From a virus (Duplodnaviria; Heunggongvirae; Uroviricota; Caudoviricetes): DNA of 64,000 nt. The position numbers were made by a program, and so were the translations under genes. This document shows positions 26,828-57,711 of the stretch, in pieces. A model generated the notes under the pieces. The model saw nothing but the letters and a program-made list of their open reading frames with translations. It was not told where the DNA came from and searched no databases. How positions within the stretch are numbered: position 1 is the stretch's first letter; each line of letters opens with the position of its first letter. The stretch is from the IMG/VR virus record IMGVR_UViG_3300042445_002023; one strand, 5' to 3'.

Positions 26828-27298
26828 ATGGCAAAAAACACACCCCCACAATCAAGTGGCCCTAAGATTATAGGCCAACAGGTGAAGAATCAACTTCAAA
26901 TGAACATCGCTCCTAAATTGGAGACTAAAGATGATGAGGTTGCATTTATCAAATATGATAATCCCAAAATCATAGAACAGGTCGAAAAAGAATATCCAGA
27001 AATGACGGATGAGTTTAAACGACTTATGTTTACTCAATACGAATTGTTTTGTCTAAAACAATCAAACTACGGCCCAAACAATATTTCGGTTGGTACTAAA
27101 TTAGAAACTGCTGAGGATAAGAAATTATCACTAACGGGATTATGGTTTAGAATGAACGATAAAATCCAAAGATTAAAACAATTGGTAGTCCTAAGTAAAG
27201 AGGATTCAGTTGGGGAATCAATAGAAGATACCTTTCAAGACCTATCAGTATATGGAATTATTGCACAAATAGTTTCTAATGGTAAATGGGCAAAATAA
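26828..27298 (+). CDS. hypothetical protein (156 aa)
   Basis: Preceded by the full early motif at 26771-26800. Confidence 0.45.
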   Translation: MAKNTPPQSSGPKIIGQQVKNQLQMNIAPKLETKDDEVAFIKYDNPKIIEQVEKEYPEMTDEFKRLMFTQYELFCLKQSNYGPNNISVGTKLETAEDKKLSLTGLWFRMNDKIQRLKQLVVLSKEDSVGESIEDTFQDLSVYGIIAQIVSNGKWAK

Positions 27299-35263: not shown

Positions 35264-36277
35264 ATGAGCAAACTATTTACTGAAAGAATTCCATTCAAAC
35301 CTTTTGAATTTCCGATATATTATACTGAGGGATGGTTAAAACAAGCACAGGCATTTTGGTTACATACCGAAATCCCAATGCAAGGTGATATTAAGGATTG
35401 GAATGAAACTCTAACTGATTCTGAAAAGAATTTAGTAGGTAACATCCTTTTAGGATTTGCTCAGACTGAGTGTGCCGTATCTGATTATTGGACTAATATG
35501 GTTACCCAATGGTTTCCAAAACATGAAATCCGTCAGATGGCAATGATGTTTGGTTCTCAAGAAACAATTCACGCAATTGCATATTCGTATCTAAATGAAA
35601 CTTTAGGATTAGATGATTTTGAAGCATTTTTACACGAACCTGCAATTGCAGAAAAGTTTGAATTATTAACAAAAACTACTTCGGATTGGACACATGAGGA
35701 TTTGGCAACAAACCCAATTGCAAGAAAAGAAGTTGGTAGAAGTTTAGCAATATTCTCAGCATTTTCAGAGGGTGTATCCCTTTATTCATCATTTGCAGTT
35801 CTTTACTCATTCCAAATGAGAAATAAATTAAAAGGAATTGGACAACAAATGAAGTGGAGTGTAAGAGATGAATCCCTACATAGTAGAATGGGATGTCAAT
35901 TATTCAGACATATGTGTGATGAATTTCCAGAATTATTAGAAGATGCTAAAGTATCAATTTATGAAGCAGCAAAACTAATAATGGAATTAGAACATAGATT
36001 TATTGATAAGATGTTTGAACAGGGTGATTTAGAGAATATGAAAAAAGATGACCTAAAACACTTTATTATTAAACGAATTAATGAGAAACTTGCAGAGTTA
36101 GGATACAATCCAATGCCTGGCGGTGATGATTATTTTGAATTCAATAAAAAGAAAGCAGCTGAATTGGATTGGTTCTATCACCTAACTGGAGGTTTAACTC
36201 ATACGGATTTCTTCGCAATGAGACCTACTGATTATTCAAAAGCAGGTGAGGGTGAGAATTGGGATGACTTATTTTAA
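35264..36277 (+). CDS. nrdB: ribonucleotide reductase class I small subunit
   Basis: Di-iron ligand motifs: SVRDESLH and an EEAIH-like HAIAYSY region; 337 aa; lies directly upstream of the large subunit. Confidence 0.7.
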   Translation: MSKLFTERIPFKPFEFPIYYTEGWLKQAQAFWLHTEIPMQGDIKDWNETLTDSEKNLVGNILLGFAQTECAVSDYWTNMVTQWFPKHEIRQMAMMFGSQETIHAIAYSYLNETLGLDDFEAFLHEPAIAEKFELLTKTTSDWTHEDLATNPIARKEVGRSLAIFSAFSEGVSLYSSFAVLYSFQMRNKLKGIGQQMKWSVRDESLHSRMGCQLFRHMCDEFPELLEDAKVSIYEAAKLIMELEHRFIDKMFEQGDLENMKKDDLKHFIIKRINEKLAELGYNPMPGGDDYFEFNKKKAAELDWFYHLTGGLTHTDFFAMRPTDYSKAGEGENWDDLF

Positions 36278-36290
36278 ATAAAACAATATT

Positions 36291-38072
36291 ATGGCAAAAA
36301 ATCAAGGTGAAGAATTTGGATGGGAACTTGGTGTCGATTTTCCGGAGTGGGGTAATACCGAAGTATATGTTAAAACCATATCAAAGGGTTACTTGATTGA
36401 GGGAGAAACACCGAAAGATGCGTATTGGAGAGTGTCTACAAAAGTAGCACAGAGATTAGGCCAACCGCAACTAGCATCTAAATTTTTCGATTATATATGG
36501 AGAGGATGGTTATGTTTAGCTACACCGGTATTATCAAACACAGGTACTGATAGGGGATTACCTATTAGTTGTTTTGGTATAGATGTAGCAGATTCCATTT
36601 TTGATATAGGTTCAAAGAATTTAGAATTAATGCTATTAGCAAAGCATGGTGGTGGAGTTGGTATTGGTATAAACCAAATCAGACCAGCAGGTGCAAAGAT
36701 TACCGGTAATGGTACATCTGATGGAGTAGTTCCATTTGCTAAAATATATGACTCAACTATTCTTGCAACGAATCAAGGTTCGGTAAGAAGAGGTGCAGCA
36801 TCAGTAAACTTAAACATCGAACATAAAGATTTTGAAGATTGGTTGGAGATTAGAGAACCGAAGGGTGATGTTAATCGTCAATGTTTAAATCTTCATCAAT
36901 GTGCAGTTGTGGGTGATAAGTTTATGAGAAAACTACAAGATGGAGAATCTGAGGCTAGAAGAAAATGGAGTAAACTACTTCAGAAAAGAAAAGCAACAGG
37001 TGAACCTTATATCTTATTTAAGGGTAATGTTAATAAGCAAAACCCATCTATGTACAAACAAAATGGATTGAAAGTTTTTATGACTAATATCTGTTCTGAA
37101 ATTGTATTACATACCGATGAATCACATTCATTCGTTTGTTGCCTAAGTTCTTTAAACTTAGCAAAATATGATGAGTGGAAGGATACGGATTTGATTTACA
37201 CATCAACTTATTTCTTAGATGGAGTTCTTTCAGAATTCATACAAAAGGCTAAGAATATGAAAGGATTTGAAAATGCAGTTCGTTCAGCAGAAAAAGGTAG
37301 AGCATTGGGGTTAGGTGTATTAGGATGGCATACTTACCTACAACAAAGAGGAATTCCATTTGAAGGAATGCCTGCTCAATTTGAAACTCGTAAGATATTT
37401 TCTCAAATGAAAATTGAATCTGAAAGAGCAAGTAGAGATATGGCATCTGAATATGGTGAACCACTTTGGTGTAGAGATAGTGGTTTCCGTAATACTCACT
37501 TACGTGCAATCGCACCAACAGTTTCTAACTCTAAATTGAGTGGAGATGTAAGTTCTGGTATTGAGCCGTGGGCAGCAAATGTATTTACGGAACAAACTTC
37601 AAAAGGAACATTCATTCGTAGAAATTCTGAATTAGAAAAACTACTTAAAAAAGTGGGAATCAATACCAAAGAAATTTGGGATAAGATTTTAGAAGATGGT
37701 GGTTCTATTCAAGATATAGCAGAATTAGATAATTGGTGTTTTGTAAATGGTAAAGCAATTCTTTGTGAAGAGGTATTACCTGAAGACAAACATAAAACAT
37801 TTAATGTTAAGGATGTATTTAAAACATTCAAAGAAATTAACCAATTAGATTTAGTAAGACAGGCGGGTATTAGACAACAATATATAGACCAATCAGTTTC
37901 ACTAAACTTAGCATTCCCTGCAATTGCAGAACCTAAATGGATTAATCAGGTAACAATGGAGGCTTGGAAACAAGGAGTTAAGACATTGTACTACATGAGA
38001 ACGGAATCCGTATTAAGAGGCGATATTGCTACAAAGGCAATGGACCCTGAATGTGTAAGTTGTGAAGGATAA
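36291..38072 (+). CDS. nrdA: ribonucleotide reductase class I large subunit, lacking the ATP cone
   Basis: Active-site NICSEI motif and a C-terminal redox Cys pair (ECVSCEG). Confidence 0.7.
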   Translation: MAKNQGEEFGWELGVDFPEWGNTEVYVKTISKGYLIEGETPKDAYWRVSTKVAQRLGQPQLASKFFDYIWRGWLCLATPVLSNTGTDRGLPISCFGIDVADSIFDIGSKNLELMLLAKHGGGVGIGINQIRPAGAKITGNGTSDGVVPFAKIYDSTILATNQGSVRRGAASVNLNIEHKDFEDWLEIREPKGDVNRQCLNLHQCAVVGDKFMRKLQDGESEARRKWSKLLQKRKATGEPYILFKGNVNKQNPSMYKQNGLKVFMTNICSEIVLHTDESHSFVCCLSSLNLAKYDEWKDTDLIYTSTYFLDGVLSEFIQKAKNMKGFENAVRSAEKGRALGLGVLGWHTYLQQRGIPFEGMPAQFETRKIFSQMKIESERASRDMASEYGEPLWCRDSGFRNTHLRAIAPTVSNSKLSGDVSSGIEPWAANVFTEQTSKGTFIRRNSELEKLLKKVGINTKEIWDKILEDGGSIQDIAELDNWCFVNGKAILCEEVLPEDKHKTFNVKDVFKTFKEINQLDLVRQAGIRQQYIDQSVSLNLAFPAIAEPKWINQVTMEAWKQGVKTLYYMRTESVLRGDIATKAMDPECVSCEG

Positions 38073-38091
38073 ACAAAAAGGAAAAAACAAA

Positions 38092-38355
38092 ATGGTAACA
38101 GTTAAGAAATTTTCAGCAGTGTGGTGTGGCCCTTGTAGAGCATTAGCTCCGGTTATTAATGAAATAAAAAATCAATTTTCAAATGTTAAATTTGAAGATT
38201 ACGATGTAGATATCGCATATGATGAGGCAACAAAGTACGGAATTCGTTCAGTACCGACCGTAATCATTGAAAAAGATGGTAAAGAAATAAATCGCTTTAC
38301 TGGAATGTCTTCGAAGATGGCATATATAAACGCAATAAATGAATGTATCCAATAA
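38092..38355 (+). CDS. thioredoxin
   Basis: WCGPC active site; start taken at the ATG at 38092 rather than the track's GTG at 38062. Confidence 0.7.
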   Translation: MVTVKKFSAVWCGPCRALAPVINEIKNQFSNVKFEDYDVDIAYDEATKYGIRSVPTVIIEKDGKEINRFTGMSSKMAYINAINECIQ

Positions 38356-38590: not shown

Positions 38591-39823
38591 ATGTATATAG
38601 AGTATTTTGATAAATTTTATGGTATGACACCATATCTTTATATCGGTAAGGAAGAGTGGTCTCACATTAAAAAAACATACCAAAGAGAAGACGTTAAGGA
38701 ATCTCTTGCCAAAGTATGTATGACATATGAATTACCATATGCAGATATTTCTGAAGAGGATGCAAGAAAAGAGTATCTTAAATTAAAAGGAACTCGTTAT
38801 CACGAACTTCTAACCGAAGGTGAGTGGTTTCCTCGTAAGGCATCTGAAACCCGTTATCCATTAGGATTTCAAGGTAAACAACAATATGTAAGAAGGCTGA
38901 ATACTGGTAATGGGGCATCGAATCATTTTCAACAAGCAAATAGATGGAGCGTAGATGGGACAGTATCGCCTGGCCCATTCCGTACTTGGAATAACCCTGA
39001 TTTTATGTTTTCACTAATCGGTGGAATGTATACCCTAAAATTTGATGAGGTTAGTAAAAATACCCTAAGAACTTGTCTATCTTTAAGAAAGTATATTTGT
39101 TCTCAGTTCAAACCAAACGTAGCAAAGGCACTTTATGATTTCGTTCAAGCAAAGAATGTATTAGATATTTCTGCTGGATGGGGTGATAGATTATGTGGAT
39201 TTTTCGCATCAGAATATGGTGAGCATTATGTAGGTATTGACCCGCGTAAAGAAAATCATCCAATATACGAAAAACAAGCCGAATTCTATAAAAAGAATAA
39301 TGGTTTTTTTGAAACTGATAAGAGGGCAACCTTTCATTGTTCTCCCGCAGAGGATATGGATTATAGTGAGTATACCGATTACTTTGATATTGTATTCAGT
39401 TCGCCACCATATTTCAACGTAGAGAGATATTCATATGATGATACTCAAAGTTGGATTCGATATAAAAATATTGATGCATGGAATAAATTATTCTTACATG
39501 CAACGATTGAAAAAGTATGGCCTACTATCCGTAAGGGTGGGTATCTAGCAGTTAATATCGCAGATGTATATGCATCCTCAAAGGGTGATGGCAAAGGTCA
39601 ACAGGAAATCACTAACCCAATGAACGATTTTATTTCCACATTAGAAGGTGCAGAGTATCAAGGATGTTTAGGTATGGAAATGGCTAAGAGGCCAGGTTCA
39701 ATTGGAGCAGGTGCAATGATTGAGGGAGATGAAGACCGATATTCCGAAGAAGAAAAGCAAAAGGCAATTGAAAATGCCGGTAAAACTTTCTGCGAACCGG
39801 TATGGGTATTTAGGAAAATGTAA
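38591..39823 (+). CDS. SPPY-motif methyltransferase-like protein, paralog 1 (putative DNA amino-methyltransferase with an unrecognised N-terminal domain)
   Basis: Motif I-like DISAGWGDRLCGFFAS...HYVGIDP, then motif IV FSSPPYFN about 75 aa later; paralogous to 39828 and 48533. Confidence 0.5.
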   Translation: MYIEYFDKFYGMTPYLYIGKEEWSHIKKTYQREDVKESLAKVCMTYELPYADISEEDARKEYLKLKGTRYHELLTEGEWFPRKASETRYPLGFQGKQQYVRRLNTGNGASNHFQQANRWSVDGTVSPGPFRTWNNPDFMFSLIGGMYTLKFDEVSKNTLRTCLSLRKYICSQFKPNVAKALYDFVQAKNVLDISAGWGDRLCGFFASEYGEHYVGIDPRKENHPIYEKQAEFYKKNNGFFETDKRATFHCSPAEDMDYSEYTDYFDIVFSSPPYFNVERYSYDDTQSWIRYKNIDAWNKLFLHATIEKVWPTIRKGGYLAVNIADVYASSKGDGKGQQEITNPMNDFISTLEGAEYQGCLGMEMAKRPGSIGAGAMIEGDEDRYSEEEKQKAIENAGKTFCEPVWVFRKM

Positions 39824-39827
39824 TTTA

Positions 39828-41048
39828 ATGATAAAAGAATATTTCAAAAAGTTTTATGGAATGACCCCCTATATCAATATTGATAAGGAGGAGTGGAAAC
39901 ATATACTAAATACATTTGAAAAGGAAGAGATAGTAGAAACATTATCAGAAGTATTACATACTTATCCACCACCTATTCCTATTATTACAGAACAAGAAAC
40001 GATTGATGCATATAAAAAGTTAAAGGGTACTTGGTGGCCGGATATTTTAGTGGAGGGAGAATGGTTTCCGCGTAATGAAAGGGAATCTGCATATCCACTT
40101 ACATTTGATAGTAGTAATTATTACTTTAAAAGAACGAATGTTGGTAATAACGCATCCAACCCATTCCATATAGAAAATCGATGGAAGGTAGATTGGTCAA
40201 GAACACCATCAGGTTGGAAGACATGGCAGACAGTTAATGGTATAAAAACCATAGTTCGGGCATTCTTCACATTAGAACAAGTCCTAACTGATGTAAATAA
40301 GGAAACACTAAAGATGGCAACTACATTACGAAAGTATGTGGCATCACAATTCAAACCTGTAATTGCTAAAGCATTTTATGATAGATTCCAAAGTGAGAAT
40401 ATATTAGATTTTTCAGCAGGTTGGGGAGATAGATTATGTGGATTCTTTGCAAGTGAAACGGGTAAACATTATGTTGGTATAGACCCTAATTTAGATAATC
40501 ACCCAAATTATGAAAACCAAATAGAATTTTATCAGAAACACAAAACGTTTTTTGAGAATCCTAAAACTGTGGAACTGATAAAGTTACCGGCAGAAGATGT
40601 GGATTATTCCAAATATGAAAACTTTTTTGATACAATCTTCACTTCACCTCCATACTTCAATACTGAAAAGTATTCCACACATGATACTCAAAGTTATTTA
40701 CGCTATAAAAAGATAGATGATTGGAATACCAATTTCCTACATAAAACAATTAAAAAAATAATCCCTACCTTAAAGAAGGGTGGGTTATTAGCAGTTAATA
40801 TTGCAGATGTATTTTCAGCACCAGATAAGGGGTATGTTGATATTGTAAATGCTATGAATGACTTTATTAAATCAGAGGGATTAGAATATATGGGTTGTAT
40901 TGGAATGGAAATGACAAAAAGGTTTAATTCCGGCGGTGCAGGAAATGCTAAATCTGAATATTTTGCAGAAGAACTCAAAGAAAAAACAGAACTCAATAAA
41001 AATAATGCATTTGGTGAACCCATTTGGATTTGGAAAAAAATAAAATAA
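39828..41048 (+). CDS. SPPY-motif methyltransferase-like protein, paralog 2
   Basis: DFSAGWGDRLCGFFAS...HYVGIDP and FTSPPYFN; start placed at the ATG at 39828, directly after the paralog 1 stop, to match the paralog 1 N-terminus (MIKEYFKKFYGMTPY against MYIEYFDKFYGMTPY). Confidence 0.5.
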   Translation: MIKEYFKKFYGMTPYINIDKEEWKHILNTFEKEEIVETLSEVLHTYPPPIPIITEQETIDAYKKLKGTWWPDILVEGEWFPRNERESAYPLTFDSSNYYFKRTNVGNNASNPFHIENRWKVDWSRTPSGWKTWQTVNGIKTIVRAFFTLEQVLTDVNKETLKMATTLRKYVASQFKPVIAKAFYDRFQSENILDFSAGWGDRLCGFFASETGKHYVGIDPNLDNHPNYENQIEFYQKHKTFFENPKTVELIKLPAEDVDYSKYENFFDTIFTSPPYFNTEKYSTHDTQSYLRYKKIDDWNTNFLHKTIKKIIPTLKKGGLLAVNIADVFSAPDKGYVDIVNAMNDFIKSEGLEYMGCIGMEMTKRFNSGGAGNAKSEYFAEELKEKTELNKNNAFGEPIWIWKKIK

Positions 41049-41054
41049 AATAAT

Positions 41055-41753
41055 ATGACAGTTATAGAAGCAACATCTCCGGGAGATGCATGGGTAAAGG
41101 TATCTAAACACCTTATTGCCAATGGCGTAAAGGTAGGCGATTTAACCGAAGAGTTAAACGTAATGACAGAAATCACCGAATTTAAATCTGATGAATGGTT
41201 CGACCCACATTTTAGAGAAATTATGGGAGATGATAGAATTGATTACGCAAAGACCGTAACCTTCTTAGAACCACAACCAAAGGTATCGGATAACCCATTC
41301 TTTGTAGCCGAAGAGGGATTGGAATACAAATTCATTAAAGACCACTGGCATGATTCATATTGGGGTAGAATGATTGCATGGCAAGGAACATTTAATCAAG
41401 TAGAAAATGTAATTAAAATCCTTAAAACTGGTAAAGCAGTTAAGAGATGTGAATTGATTATCTTTGACCCGAGCAGAGATGCTAGGAATCCATACTCACA
41501 ACCTTGTATGTTAGGGATTGATATTAAACCTCGTGGTGGTAAAATCTACCTAACATCAATCATTCGTTCAAATAGAGTATCCAAATCAGGTTACGCAGAT
41601 TACACTGCATTGGTTGAGATGGGTAAGTTCTTAGCGAGAGAAAGTGGTATGGAGTTAGGGAAAGTTTCAGTTTTAGCTTGTTCTTGTCATATCGGTAAAA
41701 TGAATGATGAAACGAAAAAGACTCATAAGTTATTAGAAGTATTAAATAAATAA
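41055..41753 (+). CDS. thymidylate-synthase-fold enzyme (232 aa); could be a dUMP/dCMP hydroxymethylase or a TS-like pyrimidine-modifying enzyme
   Basis: A candidate nucleophile segment, SQPCMLGIDIKPRGGKIYLTSIIRSNRVS, is similar to the ThyA active site PCH...YQRSxD; shorter than a canonical ThyA. Confidence 0.45.
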   Translation: MTVIEATSPGDAWVKVSKHLIANGVKVGDLTEELNVMTEITEFKSDEWFDPHFREIMGDDRIDYAKTVTFLEPQPKVSDNPFFVAEEGLEYKFIKDHWHDSYWGRMIAWQGTFNQVENVIKILKTGKAVKRCELIIFDPSRDARNPYSQPCMLGIDIKPRGGKIYLTSIIRSNRVSKSGYADYTALVEMGKFLARESGMELGKVSVLACSCHIGKMNDETKKTHKLLEVLNK

Positions 41754-41754
41754 T

Positions 41755-42177
41755 ATGAAAAAAGAACAACAAGAGTTCGTAGCATTTGAACCACAAAAAG
41801 TAAATAGATTTTTAATTGAATTTAATTCCCCATTTGTTATCCCAACATATGCGGTCCATAAAATGAGTGAATTAAAAGTAGTTTGTGTTTATGATGATGG
41901 GTGGGTAAATTGGGGTGATTTAACAATTGAGATGTATGAAACTTCAGAAATTCCAATTGCTTCAATTATTTGCAAGGGATTAGCAGAAAATAAATCTAAA
42001 CAAACTAATACAATTTCGTTTCAATTATTAGAATTAAATGTAGTAGGAGATATTATTCAACGTTGGGAAATCAATGCAAAGATAAAGGATATAGCATTTG
42101 GAAAATATGATTGGTTAAATGATGAGTTGAAAATGATAGAAATGAATTTAAAAGACGTAGAAGCTGATATAAAATAA
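41755..42177 (+). CDS. hypothetical protein (140 aa)
   Basis: Tightly coupled ORF inside the candidate modification cluster. Confidence 0.45.
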   Translation: MKKEQQEFVAFEPQKVNRFLIEFNSPFVIPTYAVHKMSELKVVCVYDDGWVNWGDLTIEMYETSEIPIASIICKGLAENKSKQTNTISFQLLELNVVGDIIQRWEINAKIKDIAFGKYDWLNDELKMIEMNLKDVEADIK

Positions 42178-42182
42178 ATAAT

Positions 42183-43688
42183 ATGTGTGGAATTGTAGCA
42201 ACGATTGGATATAAAAGAGATGATGTGAATGTAATGCTCGAAGCAATTGAGCATCGTGGTAGAGATAATCGTGGTATTAAAGAATTCCAATATAACGATA
42301 AACATATTATCTTAGGACATAACCGATTATCAATCAACGATACTTCACCATTGGGTAATCAACCTATGGAATGGGATGGAGTTGAATTGGTAGTCAATGG
42401 TGAGATTTGGAACTATCCTCAATTGCGTAAAGAATACGAAGGAAGGGGGTATCACTTTAAATCTAATTCAGATTCAGAAATTATTCTATATCTTTACAAG
42501 GAAGGTGAATTAAAGAGATTAGAGGGTATGTTCTCATTCATTATATACGATAATGATAAGTTGATACTATCGAGGGACTGGGTGGGTAAATTGCCCCTTT
42601 ATATTCACAATACAAACAACTATATCATCGCTAGTGAATTGAAATCCATTACAACACAGGTAAAGAGTTCAGATATTAAGTTTGTACCTAAGAATTCATT
42701 GGTAGAAATTGATTTAAATACTGATACGATTGTAGTTCATAAAGATTATTATTTTCAATTCTCAAACGAACCTACTATACCGGCATCACATGAAGAAGTT
42801 GGTGAAACTACATTTAAGTTATTAGAAACTGCAGTAGATAAAAGATTATTATCAGATGTACCAATTGCTACATCACTAAGTGGTGGGATTGATTCTGCAA
42901 TCATTACCTACCTACTATCACAACGTATACCAAACCTAAAAGCATACACAATTGCATTTGATGAAACCTCAAAGGATTTACAAAAGGCAAGAGTATGTGC
43001 GGAGTATTTAGGAGTGGAGTTAGTTGAAGTATTTGTTCCTAAAGATGAAGAAATAATTAAACAAAGATTTTTAGATTCAATTAGAGTAATCGAATATCCA
43101 TCGACCGTTCAAATGGAAGTGGGTATCCTACAATCCTTTATTGCAGAACAAATGGCAAGAGATGGTATTAAGGTAGCATTTAGTGGTGAGGGTTCTGATG
43201 AATCCTATGGTTCGTATGGTACATTCCGTATGTTCAGTAAGAAACCAGATTGGAGTGATGTTCGTAAAAAGTTATTTGAAAAACAATACTATGGTAACCT
43301 ATTAAGAGGTAATACTATCTTTATGAATTATGGAACAATCGAATTAAGATGCCCATTCTTTGATACCGAATTTTTAAACTATACTACTAATTTAACCGAT
43401 GAATACTTATCTAAAGGAGGTCAATGGAAATTACCACTTGCTAATGCATTCAGAGGTAAACTGCCTGATGAGATTTTAGACCAGGAAAAAAGAGCATTTC
43501 AAAAAGGAACAAATTTTAAACAATACATCGAAGAAATCATTTTAAAAGATGAATCTATTAATTTTAAGAAAAGAAAAAATATGATTCATGTCATTGGTGA
43601 TAACTTTGAAAAAATACACGGGTTCTCTCATAGAAAAATGAAAGGAGAATTAACGTCAAACTCAGGAGGAATATATCAATGGATTTAA
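42183..43688 (+). CDS. asparagine-synthetase-like enzyme: class II glutamine amidotransferase fused to a PP-loop ATP pyrophosphatase
   Basis: N-terminal Met-Cys-Gly (MCGIV) nucleophile and PP-loop motif SLSGGIDSA; 501 aa. Confidence 0.65.
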   Translation: MCGIVATIGYKRDDVNVMLEAIEHRGRDNRGIKEFQYNDKHIILGHNRLSINDTSPLGNQPMEWDGVELVVNGEIWNYPQLRKEYEGRGYHFKSNSDSEIILYLYKEGELKRLEGMFSFIIYDNDKLILSRDWVGKLPLYIHNTNNYIIASELKSITTQVKSSDIKFVPKNSLVEIDLNTDTIVVHKDYYFQFSNEPTIPASHEEVGETTFKLLETAVDKRLLSDVPIATSLSGGIDSAIITYLLSQRIPNLKAYTIAFDETSKDLQKARVCAEYLGVELVEVFVPKDEEIIKQRFLDSIRVIEYPSTVQMEVGILQSFIAEQMARDGIKVAFSGEGSDESYGSYGTFRMFSKKPDWSDVRKKLFEKQYYGNLLRGNTIFMNYGTIELRCPFFDTEFLNYTTNLTDEYLSKGGQWKLPLANAFRGKLPDEILDQEKRAFQKGTNFKQYIEEIILKDESINFKKRKNMIHVIGDNFEKIHGFSHRKMKGELTSNSGGIYQWI

Positions 43689-44518
43689 AACTAAAAGGAT
43701 TAACCGAAGATACCCCATTAGAACTTTATCACATTAAGGGTAGAGAAGTATGGGTAAAGAGGGATGACTTGATGGGCGATGGTATGATATTACCGCCGTG
43801 GGGTAAATTAGCAGCATTATTTGAATTGGTTAAAAAATATATTGATAAATCAAAACCACTGGTTCACCTTTCCGTAGATGGTAGTTGGACAGCATGGGCA
43901 TTGAGTGCAATATGTGAGGAATTGGGAATTGAATTTTATGCAGCACACCCTGATTCTAAAAAGATATCACAGGAATATTTGAGAATGATTAAGGAAATGC
44001 ATCCTAAAACAAACCTATATCCAATTAGACCTAATATGATGCAGATTATGTATAATTCGTTAAAGAAAGATGCAAGAGAAAGGGGATGGCAAATGTTACC
44101 TTACGCTTTTGACCACGATTTCTATAAAGATTATCTTGCAGATAGAATTCAACCCCTTGCCCATTTTGATAATTTAGTAGTATCATCTGGTAGTGGTGTA
44201 ACTCTTGCAGGATTAGCAAGAGGATATTATAGAGAGGAACTTAAAGAGTTTTTTCCACAAGTTAAAAAGAAGATTTGGACAACATGTGTATCATCGGTTA
44301 GTTCAATCAATAAAACACTTAAAAAGAGTGGGATTCCAATTCCCCTAAATATACGAAAATCAGAGTATCTATTTGAGAATAGATTAGATGGTTACGAAAC
44401 CCCATTCCCTTGCAACCAATTTTGGGATGTAAAGCAATGGAAGTGGTTAGAAGAAAACATAGACCAAATCGAAGGAACTATTCTATTCTGGAATATTGGT
44501 GGAATTTACAAATTTTAA
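43679..44518 (+). CDS. PLP-dependent fold-type II enzyme of the ACC deaminase / D-cysteine desulfhydrase family
   Basis: Collinear matches to the D-cysteine desulfhydrase family: TPLELYHIKGREVWVKRDDL (family: TPLEYL...REIFIKRDDV), VVSSGSGVTLAGLA, and LFWNIGG; overlaps the upstream stop by 10 nt. Confidence 0.55.
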   Translation: MDLKLKGLTEDTPLELYHIKGREVWVKRDDLMGDGMILPPWGKLAALFELVKKYIDKSKPLVHLSVDGSWTAWALSAICEELGIEFYAAHPDSKKISQEYLRMIKEMHPKTNLYPIRPNMMQIMYNSLKKDARERGWQMLPYAFDHDFYKDYLADRIQPLAHFDNLVVSSGSGVTLAGLARGYYREELKEFFPQVKKKIWTTCVSSVSSINKTLKKSGIPIPLNIRKSEYLFENRLDGYETPFPCNQFWDVKQWKWLEENIDQIEGTILFWNIGGIYKF

Positions 44519-48532: not shown

Positions 48533-50167
48533 ATGAGTAAACACTATTACGAAAGGTCTAAATTTTCTGAATTCCAATCCAATACAACTTATCATCGGTT
48601 ATTAGAAATGACTGATGATGAGTTTATTAGTTGGGCAAAGTTACTACGCATAGAAGTAACTAAACAATGGGATACCGATGGTGTTCCTCCTGTTATCGGA
48701 AAAGATAAGAATGATATAATCGATTCATTCAAAAAGTTAAAAACAAATGATTGTGATTTCCTTCAAAAAGATTTGACGGGAGATGATAACTCATTGGGTA
48801 TTTTACAAAACTTCAATAAAGATGCATCAGCCGTAAATCAATTCTTTCCAACTATGTTGAAAACCAAAATATCAATCGGTAAATCAGCAGAAGGTGGATT
48901 ATCTATTTATGACCATTTCTCAGACCCGAAATTAGAAGATACCTTCGTTCATATAATGAAGAGGGCGGTTAAGAAAGATTCTATGTATTCGTGGTCACGT
49001 TCTATTGTGAATAAGAAAGATGAGAATGAATTTTGGGATGGTGAAACTGGAATTGAATTTATACAAAAAGTACATGAAGGTAAAGTGTTCGTTGGTAAGT
49101 ACGAAAACATAGGTATTGTTCTTGCGAAAGTAAAGGAGGATACCTTAGATAATTATGGTACTATCAATGAACAATATATTGGATTTGGTAATCTATACCT
49201 AACTGCTGAACAAGTACAAGAATGTAAGGATAAGGGATGGTTATCACATACTCAATTATCTAATATTAAAACGATTGAACCATCTACCACTTTAAAAGAT
49301 GGGACGGTTAAAAAGTTTTTCTATCTGATTCGTTGGTATGATAAGACAATTGGTATCTTTCCAAAGATATTACAAGTGTTTCGTTTAAGTTGTGGTCAAC
49401 CTGCAGTGAATTTCCCTGCACTAACTGCTAAGTGGTTATACGAACATTACACTTCACATATTGAACAATCAGACCCCCTACACATTTATGATTCATCAAG
49501 TGGATGGGGTGGCAGAATATTAGGTGCAATGAGTTCTCGTAAGAAAACCCATTACATTGGAACTGACCCGAACCCTGATAACTTTATACCGGAATTAGGT
49601 ATTTCACGTTATGAGTATGTGGCTGATTTCTATAACAAAAATTGTGTAGATGATTACTCAGAAACATTTGGTAAGTTCTTTGAGGTTCAAAAACAATCAA
49701 ACACTTATGAGTTATTTCAAGATGGCTCGGAGTTGATTCAACATAATCCTAAGTTTCAAAAGTATGCAGGTAAATTGGATTTAGCATTCACATCACCCCC
49801 ATATTTTAATAGAGAACAATATTCACAAGATGAGAATCAATCATTCAAAGCATATGGTGAATATGAGGATTGGAGACAAAACTTCTTACGTCCTACTCTA
49901 ACTACCATTTATGATTATCTTAAAAATGATAGATACATTCTATGGAACATAGCCGATATTAAAATTGGTAAGGATACCTATTATGCATTGGAACAAGATT
50001 CTATTGATATTCTAACCGGATTAGGTTGTGAGTATAAAGGTAGATTGAAGATGTTAATGACCCGAATGGTAGGATTAGACCCATCTAAAACCGGTATTAA
50101 AAACGCAGTTAAACACGATGGTAAAGCGTATAAGTTTGAACCCATTTTTGTATTTTACAAACCATAA
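48533..50167 (+). CDS. SPPY-motif methyltransferase-like protein, paralog 3, with an extra N-terminal extension of about 300 aa
   Basis: SSSGWGGRILGAM...HYIGTDP and AFTSPPYFN; C-terminal block YILWNIADI aligns with LAVNIADV in paralogs 1 and 2. Confidence 0.5.
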   Translation: MSKHYYERSKFSEFQSNTTYHRLLEMTDDEFISWAKLLRIEVTKQWDTDGVPPVIGKDKNDIIDSFKKLKTNDCDFLQKDLTGDDNSLGILQNFNKDASAVNQFFPTMLKTKISIGKSAEGGLSIYDHFSDPKLEDTFVHIMKRAVKKDSMYSWSRSIVNKKDENEFWDGETGIEFIQKVHEGKVFVGKYENIGIVLAKVKEDTLDNYGTINEQYIGFGNLYLTAEQVQECKDKGWLSHTQLSNIKTIEPSTTLKDGTVKKFFYLIRWYDKTIGIFPKILQVFRLSCGQPAVNFPALTAKWLYEHYTSHIEQSDPLHIYDSSSGWGGRILGAMSSRKKTHYIGTDPNPDNFIPELGISRYEYVADFYNKNCVDDYSETFGKFFEVQKQSNTYELFQDGSELIQHNPKFQKYAGKLDLAFTSPPYFNREQYSQDENQSFKAYGEYEDWRQNFLRPTLTTIYDYLKNDRYILWNIADIKIGKDTYYALEQDSIDILTGLGCEYKGRLKMLMTRMVGLDPSKTGIKNAVKHDGKAYKFEPIFVFYKP

Positions 50168-51543: not shown

Positions 51544-52131
51544 ATGACATCGAAAGAATACGTTATATGGCTTAAAGGTTTTGTAGAAGCCTGCCACGAA
51601 TACGCACCAACTCCAAAACAATGGGATGCGTTAAAAGATAAATTGGTAGAGGTTAAGGATGAAGAACCAATAGGATTTCCGTTTGGAGTTCCTAATACTG
51701 CACCAATACAAACATTACCATTTATCCAACCATATAACCCATATAACCCATATCAAATAAATTGTGGTAGTGGTTCATCTGGAACAATAACAACAACACC
51801 TGGTCAAAGTTCTATTACATACGCAACACCACAATTTGTAACATCAACTCCATCAGCAACTGCATATGGGTATCCAAGTGGGAGTACAATGAGTTATACT
51901 AATTCAACATGGAAACCGGAACACGGCCCAAATTCTCCAACTATACAAAATATAAACAAATCATTAGGCGAATCATTAGAGGAATTAGAAAATGATTTCT
52001 TTGGTGCAATTGATGATGGTGGTTGGACACCTGAATTGGAGCAACAATTTTGGTCTGAACAACCTCCTGAACCATTTGCAACACCTGAGGAATTAGCAAA
52101 ATATAATACGGATACAACACAAAATAAATAA
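51544..52131 (+). CDS. hypothetical protein (195 aa) with an acidic C-terminus; possible clamp-loader small subunit
   Basis: Lies directly upstream of the clamp loader; low-complexity PYNPYNPYQ segment; assignment is speculative. Confidence 0.3.
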   Translation: MTSKEYVIWLKGFVEACHEYAPTPKQWDALKDKLVEVKDEEPIGFPFGVPNTAPIQTLPFIQPYNPYNPYQINCGSGSSGTITTTPGQSSITYATPQFVTSTPSATAYGYPSGSTMSYTNSTWKPEHGPNSPTIQNINKSLGESLEELENDFFGAIDDGGWTPELEQQFWSEQPPEPFATPEELAKYNTDTTQNK

Positions 52132-52132
52132 T

Positions 52133-53080
52133 ATGGCATTTTTCGAAGAAAATATAAAAGAAGAAACCCCCAACACACTTTGGGTTGAAAAATATCGTCC
52201 TAAGAAATTAGAGGATTATGTTGGCAATGACCATTTAAAACAAAAGATTCGCGATTATATTGAAAGTGGAGATGTCCCACATTTACTTTTATTTGGTAAA
52301 GCGGGAACAGGTAAAACCACTCTTGCAAAGTTGATTGTTAATTCAATCAATTGTGATTTTATGATACTAAACGCATCTGATGAAAACAATGTGGATACTG
52401 TCCGTAATAAAGTAAAATCATTTGCATCTACAATTGGGTTTAAAGATATAAAAATTGTTATCTTAGATGAGTTTGATTATATGACTCCTCAGGCTCAAGC
52501 AATCCTTAGAAATCTAATGGAAACATTTAGTAAACATTGTCGATTCATTTTGACTTGTAACTATGTGGAGAAAATCATTGACCCGATACAAAGTAGATGC
52601 CAAACCTTTCAGATTATACCACCCACTAAAAAAGATGTGGCAGTACAAATTAGTAAAATATTAACAGAGGAACGAATCCAATTTGAATTAAAAGAATTAG
52701 TTCCAATAGTAGATTCATCATATCCAGATATTCGTAAAATTATTAATACCTGTCAACTTAATTCCTCAAAGGGAATATTAAAAATTGATAGTAGTAGTAT
52801 ATCTGATGCAGATGTTAGAGTAAAAATTATAGATATTCTTAAATCAAAGGATGATAAGAGAAATCGTTATGTAAATCTAAGACAAGCAGTTGCAGATTCT
52901 CGTATACAAGATTTTACTGAATTATACACCCATCTTTACGAAAAGGTAAACGATTATGCAGTGGGTAATACTTCTGCCGTAATTATGATTCTCGCACAAG
53001 GACAATACAAAGATGCTATGATTGTAGATAAGGAGATTTGTTTTATGGCAACTCTTATCGAAATAAACGATGTGATATGA
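52133..53080 (+). CDS. clamp loader AAA+ ATPase subunit (gp44/RFC-like)
   Basis: Walker A (LLFGKAGTGKTTLAKL), Walker B (VILDEFD), SRC-like motif (QSRCQTF). Confidence 0.7.
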   Translation: MAFFEENIKEETPNTLWVEKYRPKKLEDYVGNDHLKQKIRDYIESGDVPHLLLFGKAGTGKTTLAKLIVNSINCDFMILNASDENNVDTVRNKVKSFASTIGFKDIKIVILDEFDYMTPQAQAILRNLMETFSKHCRFILTCNYVEKIIDPIQSRCQTFQIIPPTKKDVAVQISKILTEERIQFELKELVPIVDSSYPDIRKIINTCQLNSSKGILKIDSSSISDADVRVKIIDILKSKDDKRNRYVNLRQAVADSRIQDFTELYTHLYEKVNDYAVGNTSAVIMILAQGQYKDAMIVDKEICFMATLIEINDVI

Positions 53081-53391
53081 TAGAGTTGGTTAATGATAAT
53101 CTTAAAGAAATTATTAATAACCATTCTAAGGTATTCATAATGTTCTACGCAGATTGGTGTCCTGATTGTGCAAAGATAAAACCTCACTTTGAAAGATTAT
53201 CTACATATTATGAAAATATATCATTTGTGTATATCAATGCAGATGAATCACCAAAGAGTAGGAGCATTATCAATTTAACGAATATACCTACGTTTCTAGG
53301 AGTCTTTGAGGGAAATATAGTAGAAACACCCCTAATAGGAAGTAAACCTGAAAAAATCGAAGAATACCTTCAAAAAATAGTATCCTTATAA
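53077..53391 (+). CDS. thioredoxin-fold protein
   Basis: WCPDC CxxC motif; start taken at the ATG that overlaps the upstream stop (ATGA). Confidence 0.55.
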   Translation: MIELVNDNLKEIINNHSKVFIMFYADWCPDCAKIKPHFERLSTYYENISFVYINADESPKSRSIINLTNIPTFLGVFEGNIVETPLIGSKPEKIEEYLQKIVSL

Positions 53392-53671: not shown

Positions 53672-53980
53672 ATGTCAACAGAAGTACAATTAGCAAAACC
53701 ATTAGGAGATAGAGTCCTAATTAAAGTAGAGTCAGGAGAAAAAAAGATTGGTGGAATCATCATACCAGACACTGTTCAAGATGGTGATAACAAATTTGGT
53801 ATAATTGTTTCAGTAGGGAATGGTATTTATACCCAAAATGGAGCTAAAATTCCAATGGAAGTATCAGTAGGTGATAAAGTATTATTACCGCATGGTGGAA
53901 TGAATATTCAAAAAATTAAATTAGATGATACTGAATATTTCTTATGTAGAGAAATGGATTTATTAATGGTTATAAAATAA
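53672..53980 (+). CDS. groES: co-chaperonin GroES (Cpn10) homolog
   Basis: LAKPLGDRVLIKVESGEKKIGGIIIPDTVQD...GIIVSVGNG matches the GroES consensus along its length. Confidence 0.7.
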   Translation: MSTEVQLAKPLGDRVLIKVESGEKKIGGIIIPDTVQDGDNKFGIIVSVGNGIYTQNGAKIPMEVSVGDKVLLPHGGMNIQKIKLDDTEYFLCREMDLLMVIK

Positions 53981-55879: not shown

Positions 55880-57274
55880 ATGACAGAAGTAAGAAAGAAA
55901 AAGAAAATTCTTTTATTATCCGATGATTTCAGAATGTCCTCTGGTATAGCAACTGTATCAAAAGAATTAATTTTTGGTACATTGGATAAGTACGATTGGA
56001 TACAATTAGGTGCAGCAGTAGAACATCCTGAAAAAGGTAGAGAAATTGATTTAGGTGATGATGCTAGAAAAATTAGTGGTGTATTTGATGCTTCAGTTAA
56101 AATCGTTCCGTGGAGTGGTTATGGTGATGCTGATATTTTACGCGAGTTAATAATGAGACATCAACCTGATGCAATCCTACACTTTACCGACCCTCGTTAT
56201 TGGAGATGGTTGTATGATATGGAAGCAGAATTACGTGAAAACGTACCTATTTTCTTTTATCATATTTGGGATGATTTACCAGACCCTCAATATAATAGAG
56301 ATTATTATGAGAGTTGTGATTGGTTAGGATGTATTTCTAAACAAACATATGGTATTGTACGAAGAGTAGGACAAAGAACTGATTCACCAACATTCAAACC
56401 CCTTGAAGATTGGCAAGTATCATATGTACCGCATGGTATTAACTCAAATACCTTCAAACCTGCTGAAGTACCTGATGAATTCCGTAAAAGAGTATTAGGT
56501 GATAAAGATTATAAATTTGTCCTATTTTGGATGAATCGTAATATCAAACGAAAACAACCATCCGATGTCATTTGGGCATATAAACGCTTTGTAGATTCTT
56601 TACCAATTGAAGATAGAGATAAGACTTGCCTAATTATGCATACCCAAGCGGTTGACCAAAACGGAACGGATTTGTTTAAAGTAAAGGAAACCATTTGTCC
56701 TGATTACGAAGTTAAGTTCTCAGAAACTAGAATTTCACAAGAGGAATTAAATTGGTATTATAACTTATCAGATGTTACTATTAACATTGCAGGTAACGAA
56801 GGATTTGGATTAACAACTGCAGAATCAGTAATGGCCGGAACTCCTATTATTGTAAACGTTACGGGTGGATTACAAGACCAATGTGCATTTACATTAGATG
56901 GTAAAGAATTAACGGCAGAAGATTATGTGAAAATCGGTTCGGTACATGATTGGAGAGTATGGGCAGATAAGTTAGGACATGGAGAATGGGTTAACCCAGT
57001 ATTCAGTAAAGTTCAAACACTTGTAGGTTCAGTTCCAACGCCATATATTATTGATGATAAGGTTGATATTTACGAAGTTGCTGATGCAATGAAGTATTGG
57101 TATGATATTCCTAAGAAAGACCGTAAAAAGAGAGGTTTAGCGGGCAGGGAATGGATGTTAAACGAAGGTGGATTAAATCATACAAATATGTGTAAAACTC
57201 TTTCTGATGGTATGGAAACAGCTTTCCAAAATTGGAGACCTAAAGATAGATTTGGATTATATAAATTAAAATAA
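55880..57274 (+). CDS. glycosyltransferase, GT-B fold, family 4-like
   Basis: E-x7-E region NEGFGLTTAESVMAGTPIIV. Confidence 0.6.
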   Translation: MTEVRKKKKILLLSDDFRMSSGIATVSKELIFGTLDKYDWIQLGAAVEHPEKGREIDLGDDARKISGVFDASVKIVPWSGYGDADILRELIMRHQPDAILHFTDPRYWRWLYDMEAELRENVPIFFYHIWDDLPDPQYNRDYYESCDWLGCISKQTYGIVRRVGQRTDSPTFKPLEDWQVSYVPHGINSNTFKPAEVPDEFRKRVLGDKDYKFVLFWMNRNIKRKQPSDVIWAYKRFVDSLPIEDRDKTCLIMHTQAVDQNGTDLFKVKETICPDYEVKFSETRISQEELNWYYNLSDVTINIAGNEGFGLTTAESVMAGTPIIVNVTGGLQDQCAFTLDGKELTAEDYVKIGSVHDWRVWADKLGHGEWVNPVFSKVQTLVGSVPTPYIIDDKVDIYEVADAMKYWYDIPKKDRKKRGLAGREWMLNEGGLNHTNMCKTLSDGMETAFQNWRPKDRFGLYKLK

Positions 57275-57275
57275 T

Positions 57276-57701: not shown

Positions 57702-57711
57702 AAAATAAAAT

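Follow-up and report, generated by a model that had tools for sequence, protein, structure and literature searches.

A thymidylate-synthase-like protein of aquatic phages as a candidate cytosine-C5-modifying enzyme in a conserved gene module

A 232 aa protein encoded in a 64,000-nt stretch of Caudoviricetes DNA (IMG/VR record IMGVR_UViG_3300042445_002023, below the window) has a thymidylate synthase (TS) fold with a conserved cysteine nucleophile, an aspartate at position 177 and an active-site signature of its own clade, and its gene belongs to a conserved module. As judged from residues and gene neighbourhood, the chance is roughly even (about 0.5) that this TS-like protein represents a new clade of cytosine-C5-modifying enzymes standing at the start of a cytosine hypermodification pathway not yet described. 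We infer that it acts on dCMP before replication, and we likewise infer the order of the subsequent steps and the roles of the partner enzymes. The genes concerned are as follows:

38591..39823, plus strand: methyltransferase-like (MT-like) paralog 1, a class-I SAM-dependent transferase with SPPY at residue 271 and a novel N-terminal domain of ~170 aa
39828..41048, plus strand: MT-like paralog 2 with SPPY at residue 273, directly upstream of the TS-like gene (6-nt gap)
41055..41753, plus strand: TS-fold enzyme, 232 aa
41755..42177, plus strand: intervening 140-aa ORF in the same tight gene string, zero family matches
42183..43688, plus strand: AsnB-type glutamine-dependent and ATP-dependent amidotransferase with an Ntn glutaminase domain and a PP-loop synthetase domain
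43679..44518, plus strand: PLP enzyme of fold type II, homologous to the decarboxylase gp52 of phage M6
48533..50167, plus strand: MT-like paralog 3, 544 aa, which has the C-terminal SPPY transferase domain in common with the other two (SPPY at residue 421)

The program-made ORF list gives the TS-like frame from ATG to TAA. Because 228 proteins match at E<=1e-3 (mostly 232 aa, 67-99% identity), relatives are encoded at 77 IMG/VR loci and the family alignment contains blocks of invariant residues, it is confirmed as a real gene and no chance reading frame. An initial annotation made from the sequence alone had described a TS-fold protein with a QPCMLG candidate nucleophile and a downstream RSN block. 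Both were found again: QPCMLG comprises residues 149-154 with Cys151 at nt 41505-41507, RSN residues 171-173 (nt 41565-41573). The same annotation pointed out that the protein is shorter than canonical ThyA. Short it is, but this is no oddity per se, as AfhB has 234-238 aa and methanogen-type TS models ~200 aa. The family comprises hundreds of sequences in aquatic metagenomes, on contigs of up to 376 kb; one example is IMGVR_UViG_3300012347_000377 with 288 kb. Outside viruses, 185,579 species genomes yielded a single match, which sits on an integrative element of a bacterium. The clade is essentially phage-restricted and previously uncharacterised. A near-identity DNA search of cultured phages with the 9.8-kb region returned zero matches, leaving no isolate of known DNA chemistry as a reference. 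A tblastn search of cultured phages with the TS-like ORF yielded only 22-32% identical 'thymidylate synthase' genes from Lactobacillus, Enterococcus, Gordonia and Acinetobacter phages, which are functionally uninformative.

The TS alpha/beta fold, the Pro-Cys nucleophile and the equivalents of Arg166/Ser167 are all present, and JGI annotates the orthologs as 'thymidylate synthase'. As stated in the initial annotation, the window encodes a ribonucleotide reductase (subunits at 35264-38072) and, within the glycosyltransferase cluster, a dUTPase (57276-57701); a six-frame scan of the window revealed no second TS-fold gene. All this would suit an ordinary thymidylate synthase for dTMP supply. However, the protein scores below the family cutoffs: 19.5 bits with Pfam PF00303 (gathering cutoff 24.3) and, as the only NCBIfam match, 64.8 with TIGR03283 (cutoff 174.55). 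Furthermore, Asn177 is replaced by Asp and Asp169 by Arg, and His147, Tyr94 and Tyr209 are not conserved. An ordinary TS is extremely improbable.

The active site was mapped by profile-to-PDB alignment, MAFFT and hmmalign against E. coli ThyA, T4 gp42, RB69 gp48, M6 gp58, MilA and AfhB. Position numbers 94, 126, 143, 146, 166-169, 177, 207 and 209 refer to E. coli ThyA. Three codons are central to the argument:

41505..41507, plus strand: Cys151, candidate nucleophile corresponding to ThyA Cys146; Pro-Cys is invariant in the family, and its Cys lines up with Cys146 in all references
41574..41576, plus strand: Arg174, corresponding to the pterin-anchoring Asp169 of ThyA (Asn in 5-hydroxy-dCMP synthases); Arg or Ala in 78/78 members
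41598..41600, plus strand: Asp182, corresponding to ThyA Asn177, the cytosine-specificity determinant; Asp in 78/78 members

In addition, ThyA Arg166/Ser167 correspond to Arg171/Ser172, Arg126/Arg127 to Lys130/Arg131, Leu143 to Ser148, Tyr94 to Trp103 and Tyr209 to Gly214. All 78 family members carry the signature W/F94-K126-C146-(M/L)147-R166-S167-x-(R/A)169-D177-H207; none of 66 more distant short TS-fold proteins has it, and Asp169 is retained in 54 of the 66. Position 143, Ser148 in the window protein, is G/S/K/R/D/L across the family. The hydrophobic folate wall of ThyA (170-176) is replaced by an invariant polar S-K-S/A-G-Y. After His212/Gly214 (equivalent to His207/Tyr209) only 18 residues follow, compared to 55 after Tyr209 in E. 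coli ThyA. His147 and Tyr94 of ThyA are not conserved, position 209 and the second phosphate-binding Arg (127) vary within the family, and an equivalent of ThyA Arg21 is not evident. Since alignment with the references is reliable only in the C-terminal half (about residues 100-215) and the structure model has low confidence at residues 101-109 and 146-148, the equivalences at 146, 166-169 and 177 are better founded than those at 94 and 143.

According to the initial annotation, dUMP and dCMP could not be told apart from the sequence. This has to be revised: the base is readable because Asp182 replaces Asn177. Position 177 is the established determinant of cytosine versus uracil, and diagnostic TS-fold residues were validated experimentally in the same two studies (PMC13326640; PMC8670742). 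Asp is also found here in T4 gp42, MilA, RB69 gp48 and AfhB, and Asn in ThyA and M6 gp58. A C5-methylase that converts dCMP to 5-methyl-dCMP with CH2-THF as carbon and hydride donor would agree with this residue and with the lack of an acid at 143; indeed, N177D ThyA methylates dCMP (cited in PMC8670742). Yet the protein has lost Asp169, Tyr94, the hydrophobic folate wall and the closing C-terminal segment on which ordered hydride transfer depends, in line with the suspicion of the initial annotation that this is not an ordinary ThyA. Moreover, a plain methyl group would give the AsnB and PLP partners no substrate. Such a methylase is very unlikely.

By its aligned residues at positions 143/169/177, the TS-like protein fits no characterised product class: ThyA has L/D/N, the hydroxymethylases D/D/N or D/D/D, the 5-hydroxy-dCMP synthases E/N/D and the TS-like protein S/R/D. 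Compared to ThyA, it lacks Asn177, Asp169, a hydrophobic residue at 143 and the C-terminal folate-closing segment. With the hydroxymethylases T4 gp42 (dCMP) and MilA (CMP) it shares the TS fold, the Cys, Asp177, Asn168 and the hairpin Arg ('IRD'). Both catalyse the first, handle-installing step of a hypermodification, as is proposed here for the TS-like protein, which in contrast lacks Asp/Glu143, Asp169, Tyr94 and Tyr209. In the initial annotation, 5-hydroxymethyl pyrimidines were considered the usual product of such phage paralogs, and alignment with ThyA and T4 gp42 was recommended. This alignment recovered the Cys, the Arg/Ser pair and Asp177; the residues diagnostic of hydroxymethylases at 143 and 169 were not found, and Ser148 and Arg174 (versus Asp143 and Asp169 in T4 gp42, MilA and M6 gp58) speak against the suggested product.

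A folate-dependent dCMP 5-hydroxymethylase with a divergent folate site still has several features in its favour. In addition to Asp177 and the Cys nucleophile, MilA ranks second among the structural matches and first among the single-sequence PDB matches, a small Ser/Gly at 143 would admit water, and the pathways from which the PLP partner is known decorate a 5-CH2-X handle. The 5hm-dCMP would be decorated after replication by the neighbours, perhaps by the glycosyltransferase cluster (55880-61014, including GT4 'conflict-system' types). However, the four characterised hydroxymethylases/hydroxylases in our comparison all have Asp or Glu at 143, and the folate-dependent references all carry Asp169, Tyr94 and Tyr209, where the family has Arg/Ala, Trp/Phe and variable residues. 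Some ThyA Asp169 mutants retain activity, so that loss of Asp169 alone does not settle the matter against folate. The polar SKSGY in place of the hydrophobic wall and the insignificant profile match with T4 gp42 (4.7% probability) are further arguments against this reaction. No homolog that could activate a hydroxymethyl group was detected either: M6 gp51 (5-hm-base kinase) and gp54 (aGPT-Pplase) had no BLAST match among the window ORFs or the compared related-locus proteins. Altogether, we consider a hydroxymethylase unlikely.

The best structural and profile match is provided by the flavin-dependent 5-hydroxy-dCMP synthases (phage HY126 AfhB, PDB 9iqc/9iqu; RB69 gp48; DLP3 gp80). They have in common with the TS-like protein the TS fold, a length of about 232-238 aa without C-terminal folate-closing segment, the Cys nucleophile, Arg166/Ser167, Asp177 and the loss of Asp169. 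Since a flavin hydroxylase is the closest relative with a solved structure, an AfhB-like reaction is quite possible: a variant flavin- and O2-dependent enzyme would synthesize 5-hydroxy-dCMP, whose 5-OH would be alkylated, acylated or glycosylated. D169N is consistently conserved among 5hodCMP-producing subfamilies and was proposed by the authors as diagnostic (PMC13326640). The TS-like family has Arg or Ala instead in 78/78 members, no conserved Glu143, and Trp/Phe for Tyr94; the CAVVMQL segment of AfhB is replaced by SKSGYAD, i.e. the 169-177 segment is polar and not hydrophobic, and identity amounts to ~18-24%, in the C-terminal half only. Arg at 169 could suit flavin, too. The partners also differ: known 5hoC pathways of the AfhB class comprise arabinose or hexose activation and glycosyltransferases, whereas the TS-like protein is accompanied by AsnB, PLP or radical-SAM (rSAM) enzymes and SPPY transferases, with glycosyltransferases outside the conserved module. 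On balance, we rate the AfhB-like reaction as rather doubtful, about on a par with the hydroxymethylase. Because of Arg/Ala169, the lack of an acid at 143 and the polar S-K-S/A-G-Y wall, we think that the electrophile is probably delivered in a manner unlike that of ThyA, T4 gp42 or MilA and that the protein is not a typical D169N flavin hydroxylase.

The second line of evidence is the gene neighbourhood. From MT-like paralog 1 to the PLP gene, the gaps in the window are 4, 6, 1, 5 and -10 nt, and the catalytic motifs of all partner enzymes are intact. The two adjoining MT-like paralogs noticed in the initial annotation are 51% identical and lie immediately upstream of the TS-like gene. Its placement of this gene between paralog 2 and the AsnB/PLP pair is correct in order, but passed over the non-conserved 140-aa ORF in front of AsnB. 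This ORF shows weak similarity to the tail-tube-like ORF of the window (5529-6017) and was rejected as a module member: it is absent there in other lineages, where the Asn-synthetase gene begins 0-21 nt after the TS-like gene. MT-like paralog 2 most likely starts at ATG 39828 and not at TTG 39720, which would overlap paralog 1. Paralog 1 has weak Pfam matches to N6_N4_Mtase and Methyltransf families and matches PHROG 12517. A PDB sequence search with paralog 2 returned zero matches. As its AF2 model resembles only generic class-I Rossmann methyltransferases (TM about 0.3; CmoB among many), neither the transferred group nor the acceptor can be assigned. Paralog 3 shares 29-34% identity with paralogs 1 and 2 and 33% with the MT-like genes at two distant loci (L008, L001). 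The AsnB-like protein matches Pfam Asn_synthase (1.8e-42) and GATase_7 as well as NCBIfam TIGR01536 (282.6, above the cutoff of 267.1); Cys2 and SGGIDS are intact. The PLP protein aligns with M6 gp52 over 281 aa (blastp E 2e-21, 25% identity), and the PLP lysine (M6 K36) is conserved. In cultured phages it has 64 matches, all near full length, most of them from M6-like phages of Pseudomonas and from Bordetella phages. None of the TS-like, AsnB and PLP proteins was recognised by PADLOC.

Across the family, 60 of 61 informative loci have an Asn-synthetase-like gene no more than 1.5 kb away from the TS-like gene; 57 of the 61 have a PLP gene and five an rSAM gene. An MT-like gene is found within 10 kb at all 32 loci with full flanks, and homologs of MT-like paralog 2 adjoin the TS-like gene at distant loci. 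The same partners surround TS-like relatives of only 35-49% identity. A natural fusion of TS-like and radical-SAM protein exists (P0160), and at L008 the TS-like and MT-like genes are translationally coupled or overlap. The conserved module comprises SPPY transferase paralogs, an Asn-synthetase-type amidotransferase and a PLP or radical-SAM enzyme, which bears out the linkage to DNA hypermodification genes expected by the initial annotation. This constant set of partners suggests that the TS-like enzyme starts an undescribed cytosine decoration of viral DNA. Literature searches found no description of this combination of TS-like, AsnB, PLP or rSAM, and SPPY genes. The rSAM partner has weak matches to B12-binding radical-SAM models and no similarity to the M6 gp53 isomerase. 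Arg versus Ala at 169 was considered as a correlate of the PLP or rSAM type of module and discarded (Ala with PLP in the L085-type cluster, Arg with rSAM in L008 and L017). Glycosyltransferases were called near none of eight distant loci (among them L001, L005, L008, L012, L013 and L014), so that the glycosyltransferase cluster of the window is probably independent of the module.

Genes for nucleotide supply bear on the timing of the reaction. As the initial annotation had stated, no obvious dCMP deaminase or dCTPase is present among the scanned window ORFs. A dNMP kinase or dCTPase was not found in the 64-kb window, outside of which part of the phage genome lies, and the P-loop ORFs of the window are only helicase, RecA and clamp loader. 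This counts against the proposed pathway, since a T4-style pre-replicative route requires such enzymes. It would accord with a substrate other than a free deoxynucleotide, i.e. CMP, another cytidine derivative or cytosine in a polynucleotide, possibly in complex with an SPPY transferase. Tyr209, which in ThyA contacts the 3'-OH of the sugar, has no conserved counterpart, no equivalent of Arg21 is apparent and Arg127 is variable; the coupling with the MT-like gene at L008 and the presence of the cassette on a bacterial integrative element point in the same direction. On the other hand, Arg171, Ser172 and Lys130 are kept, to our knowledge all TS-fold enzymes characterised so far use a mononucleotide substrate, and the radical-SAM fusion suggests a common small-molecule substrate. 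We assign such substrates only a small probability and prefer dCMP.

Two groups of described pathways resemble the module. In the M6/ViI/PaMx11 thymidine pathway, a dUMP hydroxymethylase is followed by a 5-hmdU DNA kinase, an aGPT-Pplase and then a PLP decarboxylase or rSAM isomerase. A TS-fold enzyme for the C5 handle, a homologous PLP enzyme and PLP/radical-SAM tailoring are common to both. In contrast, the base predicted here is cytosine (Asp177) and not uracil, homologs of the kinase, the aGPT-Pplase and the M6 rSAM isomerase are lacking, the Asn-synthetase-type enzyme and the SPPY transferases are additional, and the rSAM protein is unlike the SPL-like M6 gp53. For M6 gp52, decarboxylation of amino-acid:base conjugates in DNA has been shown; the 25% identical homolog in the module may catalyse something else. 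CmoA/CmoX/CmoY of Synechococcus phage S-B43 (5-carboxymethylcytosine) also combine a cytosine C5 handle with an ATP-dependent enzyme, and CmoY, an Asn-synthetase homolog, was shown to be an amide ligase on modified cytosine in DNA; the likeness to the AsnB-type enzyme is at the family level. Both systems include a SAM-family transferase and occur in aquatic phages. However, CmoX, a C5-methyltransferase homolog, puts the handle on DNA using carboxy-SAM, whereas the module described here has a TS-fold enzyme, and the transferase of the TS-like module has an SPPY motif of the amino-methyltransferase type. No C5-methyltransferase or CmoA family matches were obtained in a family-level scan of the ORFs.

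Taken together, the preferred reading is as follows. Cys151 would attack a cytosine mononucleotide, most probably dCMP, at C6, with Asp182 recognising the base and Arg171, Ser172, Lys130 and Arg131 gripping the phosphate. The C5 enamine would capture an electrophile, yielding a substituent ('handle') on C5, and the modified nucleotide would then be built into phage DNA. The co-inherited enzymes would turn the handle into a hypermodified cytosine: the Asn-synthetase-type enzyme by ATP-driven amidation or ligation of a carboxylate, the M6-gp52-type PLP enzyme, replaced in other lineages by the radical-SAM enzyme, by decarboxylation of an amino-acid moiety, and the SPPY SAM-dependent transferases by alkylation of a nitrogen. 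The latter could also be plain DNA N4/N6 methyltransferases that just happen to lie nearby. It is hard to reconcile an amidotransferase plus a decarboxylase with a single-carboxylate side chain, which makes the order of the pathway speculative. More tentatively, and with odds clearly below even, the protein might represent a new reaction class of the TS superfamily. Cys-C6 catalysis would join C5 of dCMP to a non-folate, non-flavin, probably anionic co-substrate bound in a clade-specific pocket of Arg174, Lys177 and Tyr180. The resulting carboxylate- or amino-acid-bearing handle would pass to the AsnB-type enzyme for amidation, to the gp52-type PLP enzyme for decarboxylation or to the radical-SAM enzyme for rearrangement/alkylation, and to the SPPY paralogs for N-alkylation, giving a hypermodified cytosine new to science in the DNA of abundant uncultured large aquatic phages.

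Most known pyrimidine hypermodifications of phage DNA begin with a TS-fold enzyme. Until 2025, the fold was believed to be limited to folate-dependent one-carbon transfer; then, the flavin hydroxylases revealed that cofactors can be switched. The TS-like clade displays a third active-site signature (Arg/Ala169, Asp177 and the polar SKSGY wall) together with a partner set that no described pathway has. Should the product be new, this would mean a new cytosine modification chemistry and a sequence signature for the prediction of modification in viromes. It would also provide enzymes for DNA labelling, restriction or CRISPR resistance, and could help to explain sequencing and cloning biases of these phages.

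The TS-like gene (41055-41753, + strand) is an ATG-to-TAA ORF encoding 232 aa in a window whose genes all lie on the + strand and whose G+C content is ~0.32. The translation contains both motifs quoted in the initial annotation, QPCMLG (residues 149-154) and RSN (171-173). By sequence comparison, the ORF did not arise as a chance reading frame: it has 228 protein matches at E<=1e-3, mostly 232 aa long and 67-99% identical, which come from the JGI, ENA, Logan and Tara collections on contigs of up to 288 kb. A scan of IMG/VR yielded 77 loci with relatives on contigs up to 376 kb, in one case with 100% identity. Among 1.84 billion 50%-identity cluster representatives, only 14 clusters score below 1e-30, and 185,579 cellular species-representative genomes contain a single match. 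No close DNA-level relative of the region was found among cultured phages, and JGI labels the orthologs merely as 'thymidylate synthase'.

At the sequence level, the protein resembles thymidylate synthase (TS) only weakly. Pfam PF00303 scores 19.5 bits (cutoff 24.3), the NCBIfam methanogen-type TS 64.8 (cutoff 174.55), and the PHROG 'thymidylate synthase' families reach 1e-9 to 1e-8. The top PDB sequence match is the CMP hydroxymethylase MilA (E 5e-4), and Foldseek returns its matches in the same order. The family profile aligns with RB69 gp48 at 96%, with E. coli ThyA at 79% and with T4 gp42 at 5% probability, all three alignments covering only residues ~111-214; the N-terminal half is unalignable to the references. 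The protein has a TS fold, a conserved Cys nucleophile with Arg/Ser, and Asp where the base is discriminated.

Numbered as in E. coli ThyA, the nucleophile is Cys146; replacement of Asn177 by Asp shifts specificity to cytosine, Asp/Glu in place of Leu143 accompanies hydroxymethyl products, and Asn in place of Asp169 marks flavin-dependent 5-hydroxy-dCMP synthases (PMC13326640; PMC8670742). For the alignment with the window protein, E. coli ThyA, T4 gp42, RB69 gp48 and M6 gp58 were taken from annotated genomes, MilA and AfhB as segments from HMMER output.

Residues at positions 143/169/177 (E. coli ThyA numbering)
ThyA: L/D/N
M6 gp58 (dUMP hydroxymethylase): D/D/N
T4 gp42, MilA: D/D/D
RB69 gp48, AfhB: E/N/D
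Window protein: S/R/D

This scheme sorts each characterised enzyme correctly and places the window protein outside all classes. Further changes from ThyA are Tyr94 to Trp103, His147 to Met152, Tyr209 to Gly214 and Arg126 to Lys130, the structure model being uncertain in the loops that bear positions 94 and 143. Between 169 and 177, the hydrophobic folate wall of ThyA (VFLGLPF) reads V-S-K-S-G-Y-A, and Lys177, Gly179 and Tyr180 (window-protein numbering) are invariant throughout the family. Arg/Ala169, Asp177, Trp/Phe94 and Lys126 occur in 13/13 family clusters of the representative library and in 78/78 loci, while of 66 more distantly related short TS-fold proteins, 54 keep Asp169. These residues form a clade-specific signature. 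The initial annotation had held that dUMP and dCMP could not be told apart from sequence; Asp at 177 reads as cytosine. From the residue table and the clade signature, cytosine is the predicted substrate base, and the enzyme is predicted to differ from ordinary TS, from textbook hydroxymethylases and from D169N hydroxylases. An AfhB-like flavin hydroxylase would agree with the best profile match, RB69 gp48 being a 5-hydroxy-dCMP synthase identical to AfhB across the aligned fragment; with Arg instead of Asn at 169, this reading, one of the two main alternatives, is unlikely.

In the clade-specific pocket on the cofactor side, the pterin anchor and the hydrophobic wall are gone, and invariant residues of cationic and polar character have been acquired. 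This favours a co-substrate or binding mode unlike those of the three known classes, to which we give close to an even chance. Some ThyA Asp169 mutants keep activity, so folate could still be used; a divergent folate-dependent hydroxymethylase, the other main alternative, is with this pocket equally unlikely. In the mechanism that we propose, Cys151 would add to C6 of dCMP, Asp182 would stabilise the cytosine enamine, and C5 would attack an electrophile, yielding a handle for the partner enzymes.

These partners are encoded next to the TS-like gene:
38591-39823, + strand: MT1, SAM-dependent transferase, 51% identity to MT2
39828-41048, + strand: MT2, paralog of MT1
41055-41753, + strand: TS-like gene
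42183-43688, + strand: AsnB-like gene
43679-44518, + strand: PLP enzyme gene
48533-50167, + strand: MT3, third paralog, C-terminal domain in common with MT1 and MT2

From MT1 to the PLP gene, with the 140-aa ORF at 41755-42177 counted in, the gaps are 4, 6, 1, 5 and -10 nt. All three paralogs have an SPPY motif downstream of the Rossmann SAM-binding motif; SPPY is typical of methyltransferases acting on exocyclic amino groups. The MT2 model resembles generic class-I methyltransferases only, and its N-terminal 170 residues found no match in the model comparison. The mechanical MT2 ORF begins at TTG 39720 and overlaps MT1 by 104 nt. As MT1 and MT2 both open with M-x-I-x-Y-F-x-K-F-Y-G-M-T-P-Y, the real start is most likely ATG 39828, 4 nt past the MT1 stop. 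The AsnB-like protein scores above the NCBIfam asparagine-synthase cutoff and has intact Cys2 and SGGIDS PP-loop. The PLP protein has 64 near-full-length matches in cultured phages, chiefly relatives of Pseudomonas phage M6 and Bordetella phages; its M6 counterpart is gp52 (blastp E 2e-21, catalytic Lys36 conserved), for which decarboxylation of an amino-acid:thymine conjugate in DNA was demonstrated experimentally (PMC8989533).

Wedged between the TS-like and AsnB-like genes, a 140-aa ORF (41755-42177) has no family matches and weakly resembles the T4 gp19-like tail-tube ORF at 5529-6017 (23% identity, E 1e-4). Other lineages lack it here, so it may be a moron or a fragment of a structural gene that was displaced. 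Several junctions (41048-41057, 41751-41757, 42175-42185, 52129-52135) share a string of TAA stop, ATAAT and ATG (e.g. AAATAAATAAT-ATG). None has a Shine-Dalgarno-like purine run, which points to SD-independent initiation in the host and perhaps to translational coupling.

The partner genes recur around distant relatives with only 35-49% identity to the window protein (BLAST). Usually, an MT-like gene lies directly upstream, in locus L008 overlapping the TS-like start. Directly downstream follows an Asn-synthetase-like gene (full AsnB or a lone ~290-aa PP-loop domain), then a PLP or radical-SAM (rSAM) enzyme. Among the IMG/VR loci and one cellular locus, 61 have 3.5 kb or more of downstream sequence; of these, 60 carry the Asn-synthetase-like gene within 1.5 kb, 57 a PLP gene within 3.5 kb and 5 an rSAM gene (one has both). 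An MT-like gene occurs within 10 kb in all 32 loci whose flanks reach 9 kb or more on both sides. After de-replication at 70% identity, the Asn-like gene is found in seven of eight informative clusters and PLP or rSAM in all eight. The gene partnership is obligate. In P0160 (L001 7088-9118), TS-like residues 1-217 are naturally fused to a ~450-aa radical-SAM enzyme (CPRKCSYC). Its homologs in L008 and L014 are stand-alone rSAM genes, which weakly match B12-binding rSAM families in NCBIfam.

The rSAM-type cassette (L017 5613-11610; L008 6448-12931) comprises a 389-405-aa unknown protein, MT-like, TS-like, PP-loop and rSAM genes, with 54-76% protein identity between the Ignavibacteria MAG (L017) and the related metagenomic L008. 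The MAG is the sole cellular occurrence. Its cassette adjoins genes for an excisionase-like HTH protein and a Prim-Pol and is flanked by housekeeping genes, which indicates an integrative element; the L008 cassette lies beside an integrase.

Single lineages carry additional genes. L014 (6766-9361) has an IS605-type OrfB/TnpB gene between the MT-like and TS-like genes, and, directly behind the latter, a 178-aa ORF matching DUF723 and, weakly, the N-domain of PvuRts1I, a modified-cytosine-dependent restriction enzyme; its RecA is apparently split by inteins. In L005 (308-6259), the module is preceded, at a distance of a few kb, by five tandem paralogs with the ADP-ribosylating toxin domain ADPrib_exo_Tox. 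L012 encodes a pyridoxamine-5'-phosphate-oxidase-like (FMN-binding) protein directly after the PLP enzyme (10402-11013), which could serve PLP salvage or a flavin-related role.

Elsewhere in the window, a 156-aa ORF (26828-27298) scores 27 bits against Pfam DUF1599 ('Nucleotide modification associated domain 1') and gives a second hint of nucleotide modification, at a distance from the main cluster. The cluster at 55880-63495 encodes two GT4-type glycosyltransferases ('GT4 in conflict systems' family) with a dUTPase (57276-57701) between them, two GT2s, a Glyco_trans_1_2 protein, a Methyltransf_24 protein and an NAD-dependent sugar epimerase/dehydratase; it could glycosylate either a surface glycan or DNA. 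In the distant loci whose gene lists were read, the neighbours of the TS-like gene include no called glycosyltransferase. A PhyH-family 2-oxoglutarate/Fe(II) dioxygenase (15889-16665, amid tail and baseplate genes), an SPFH/Band-7 protein (19947-20858), a GroES-like Cpn10 (53672-53980) and two thioredoxins (38062-38355, 53038-53391) are also encoded. Neither a dNMP kinase nor a dCTPase was found within the 64 kb.

With thymidine pathways, the module has only the PLP step in common; no counterparts of the M6 kinase, amino-acid transferase or rSAM isomerase were found here. A precedent for the Asn-synthetase homolog is CmoY, an amide ligase on modified cytosine in DNA (PMC12783734). By homology, the later steps would be amidation or ligation, decarboxylation or radical chemistry, and N-alkylation. 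An amidotransferase and a decarboxylase are hard to reconcile on a single-carboxylate side chain, so any scheme drawn now probably understates the complexity of the actual chemistry. The literature searched contains no description of this clade or its gene combination. The window protein would be a TS-superfamily installer of pyrimidine-C5 handles with a new active-site signature and partner set, and we put the probability that it is a cytosine-C5-modifying enzyme at the start of a hypermodification pathway at about 80%.
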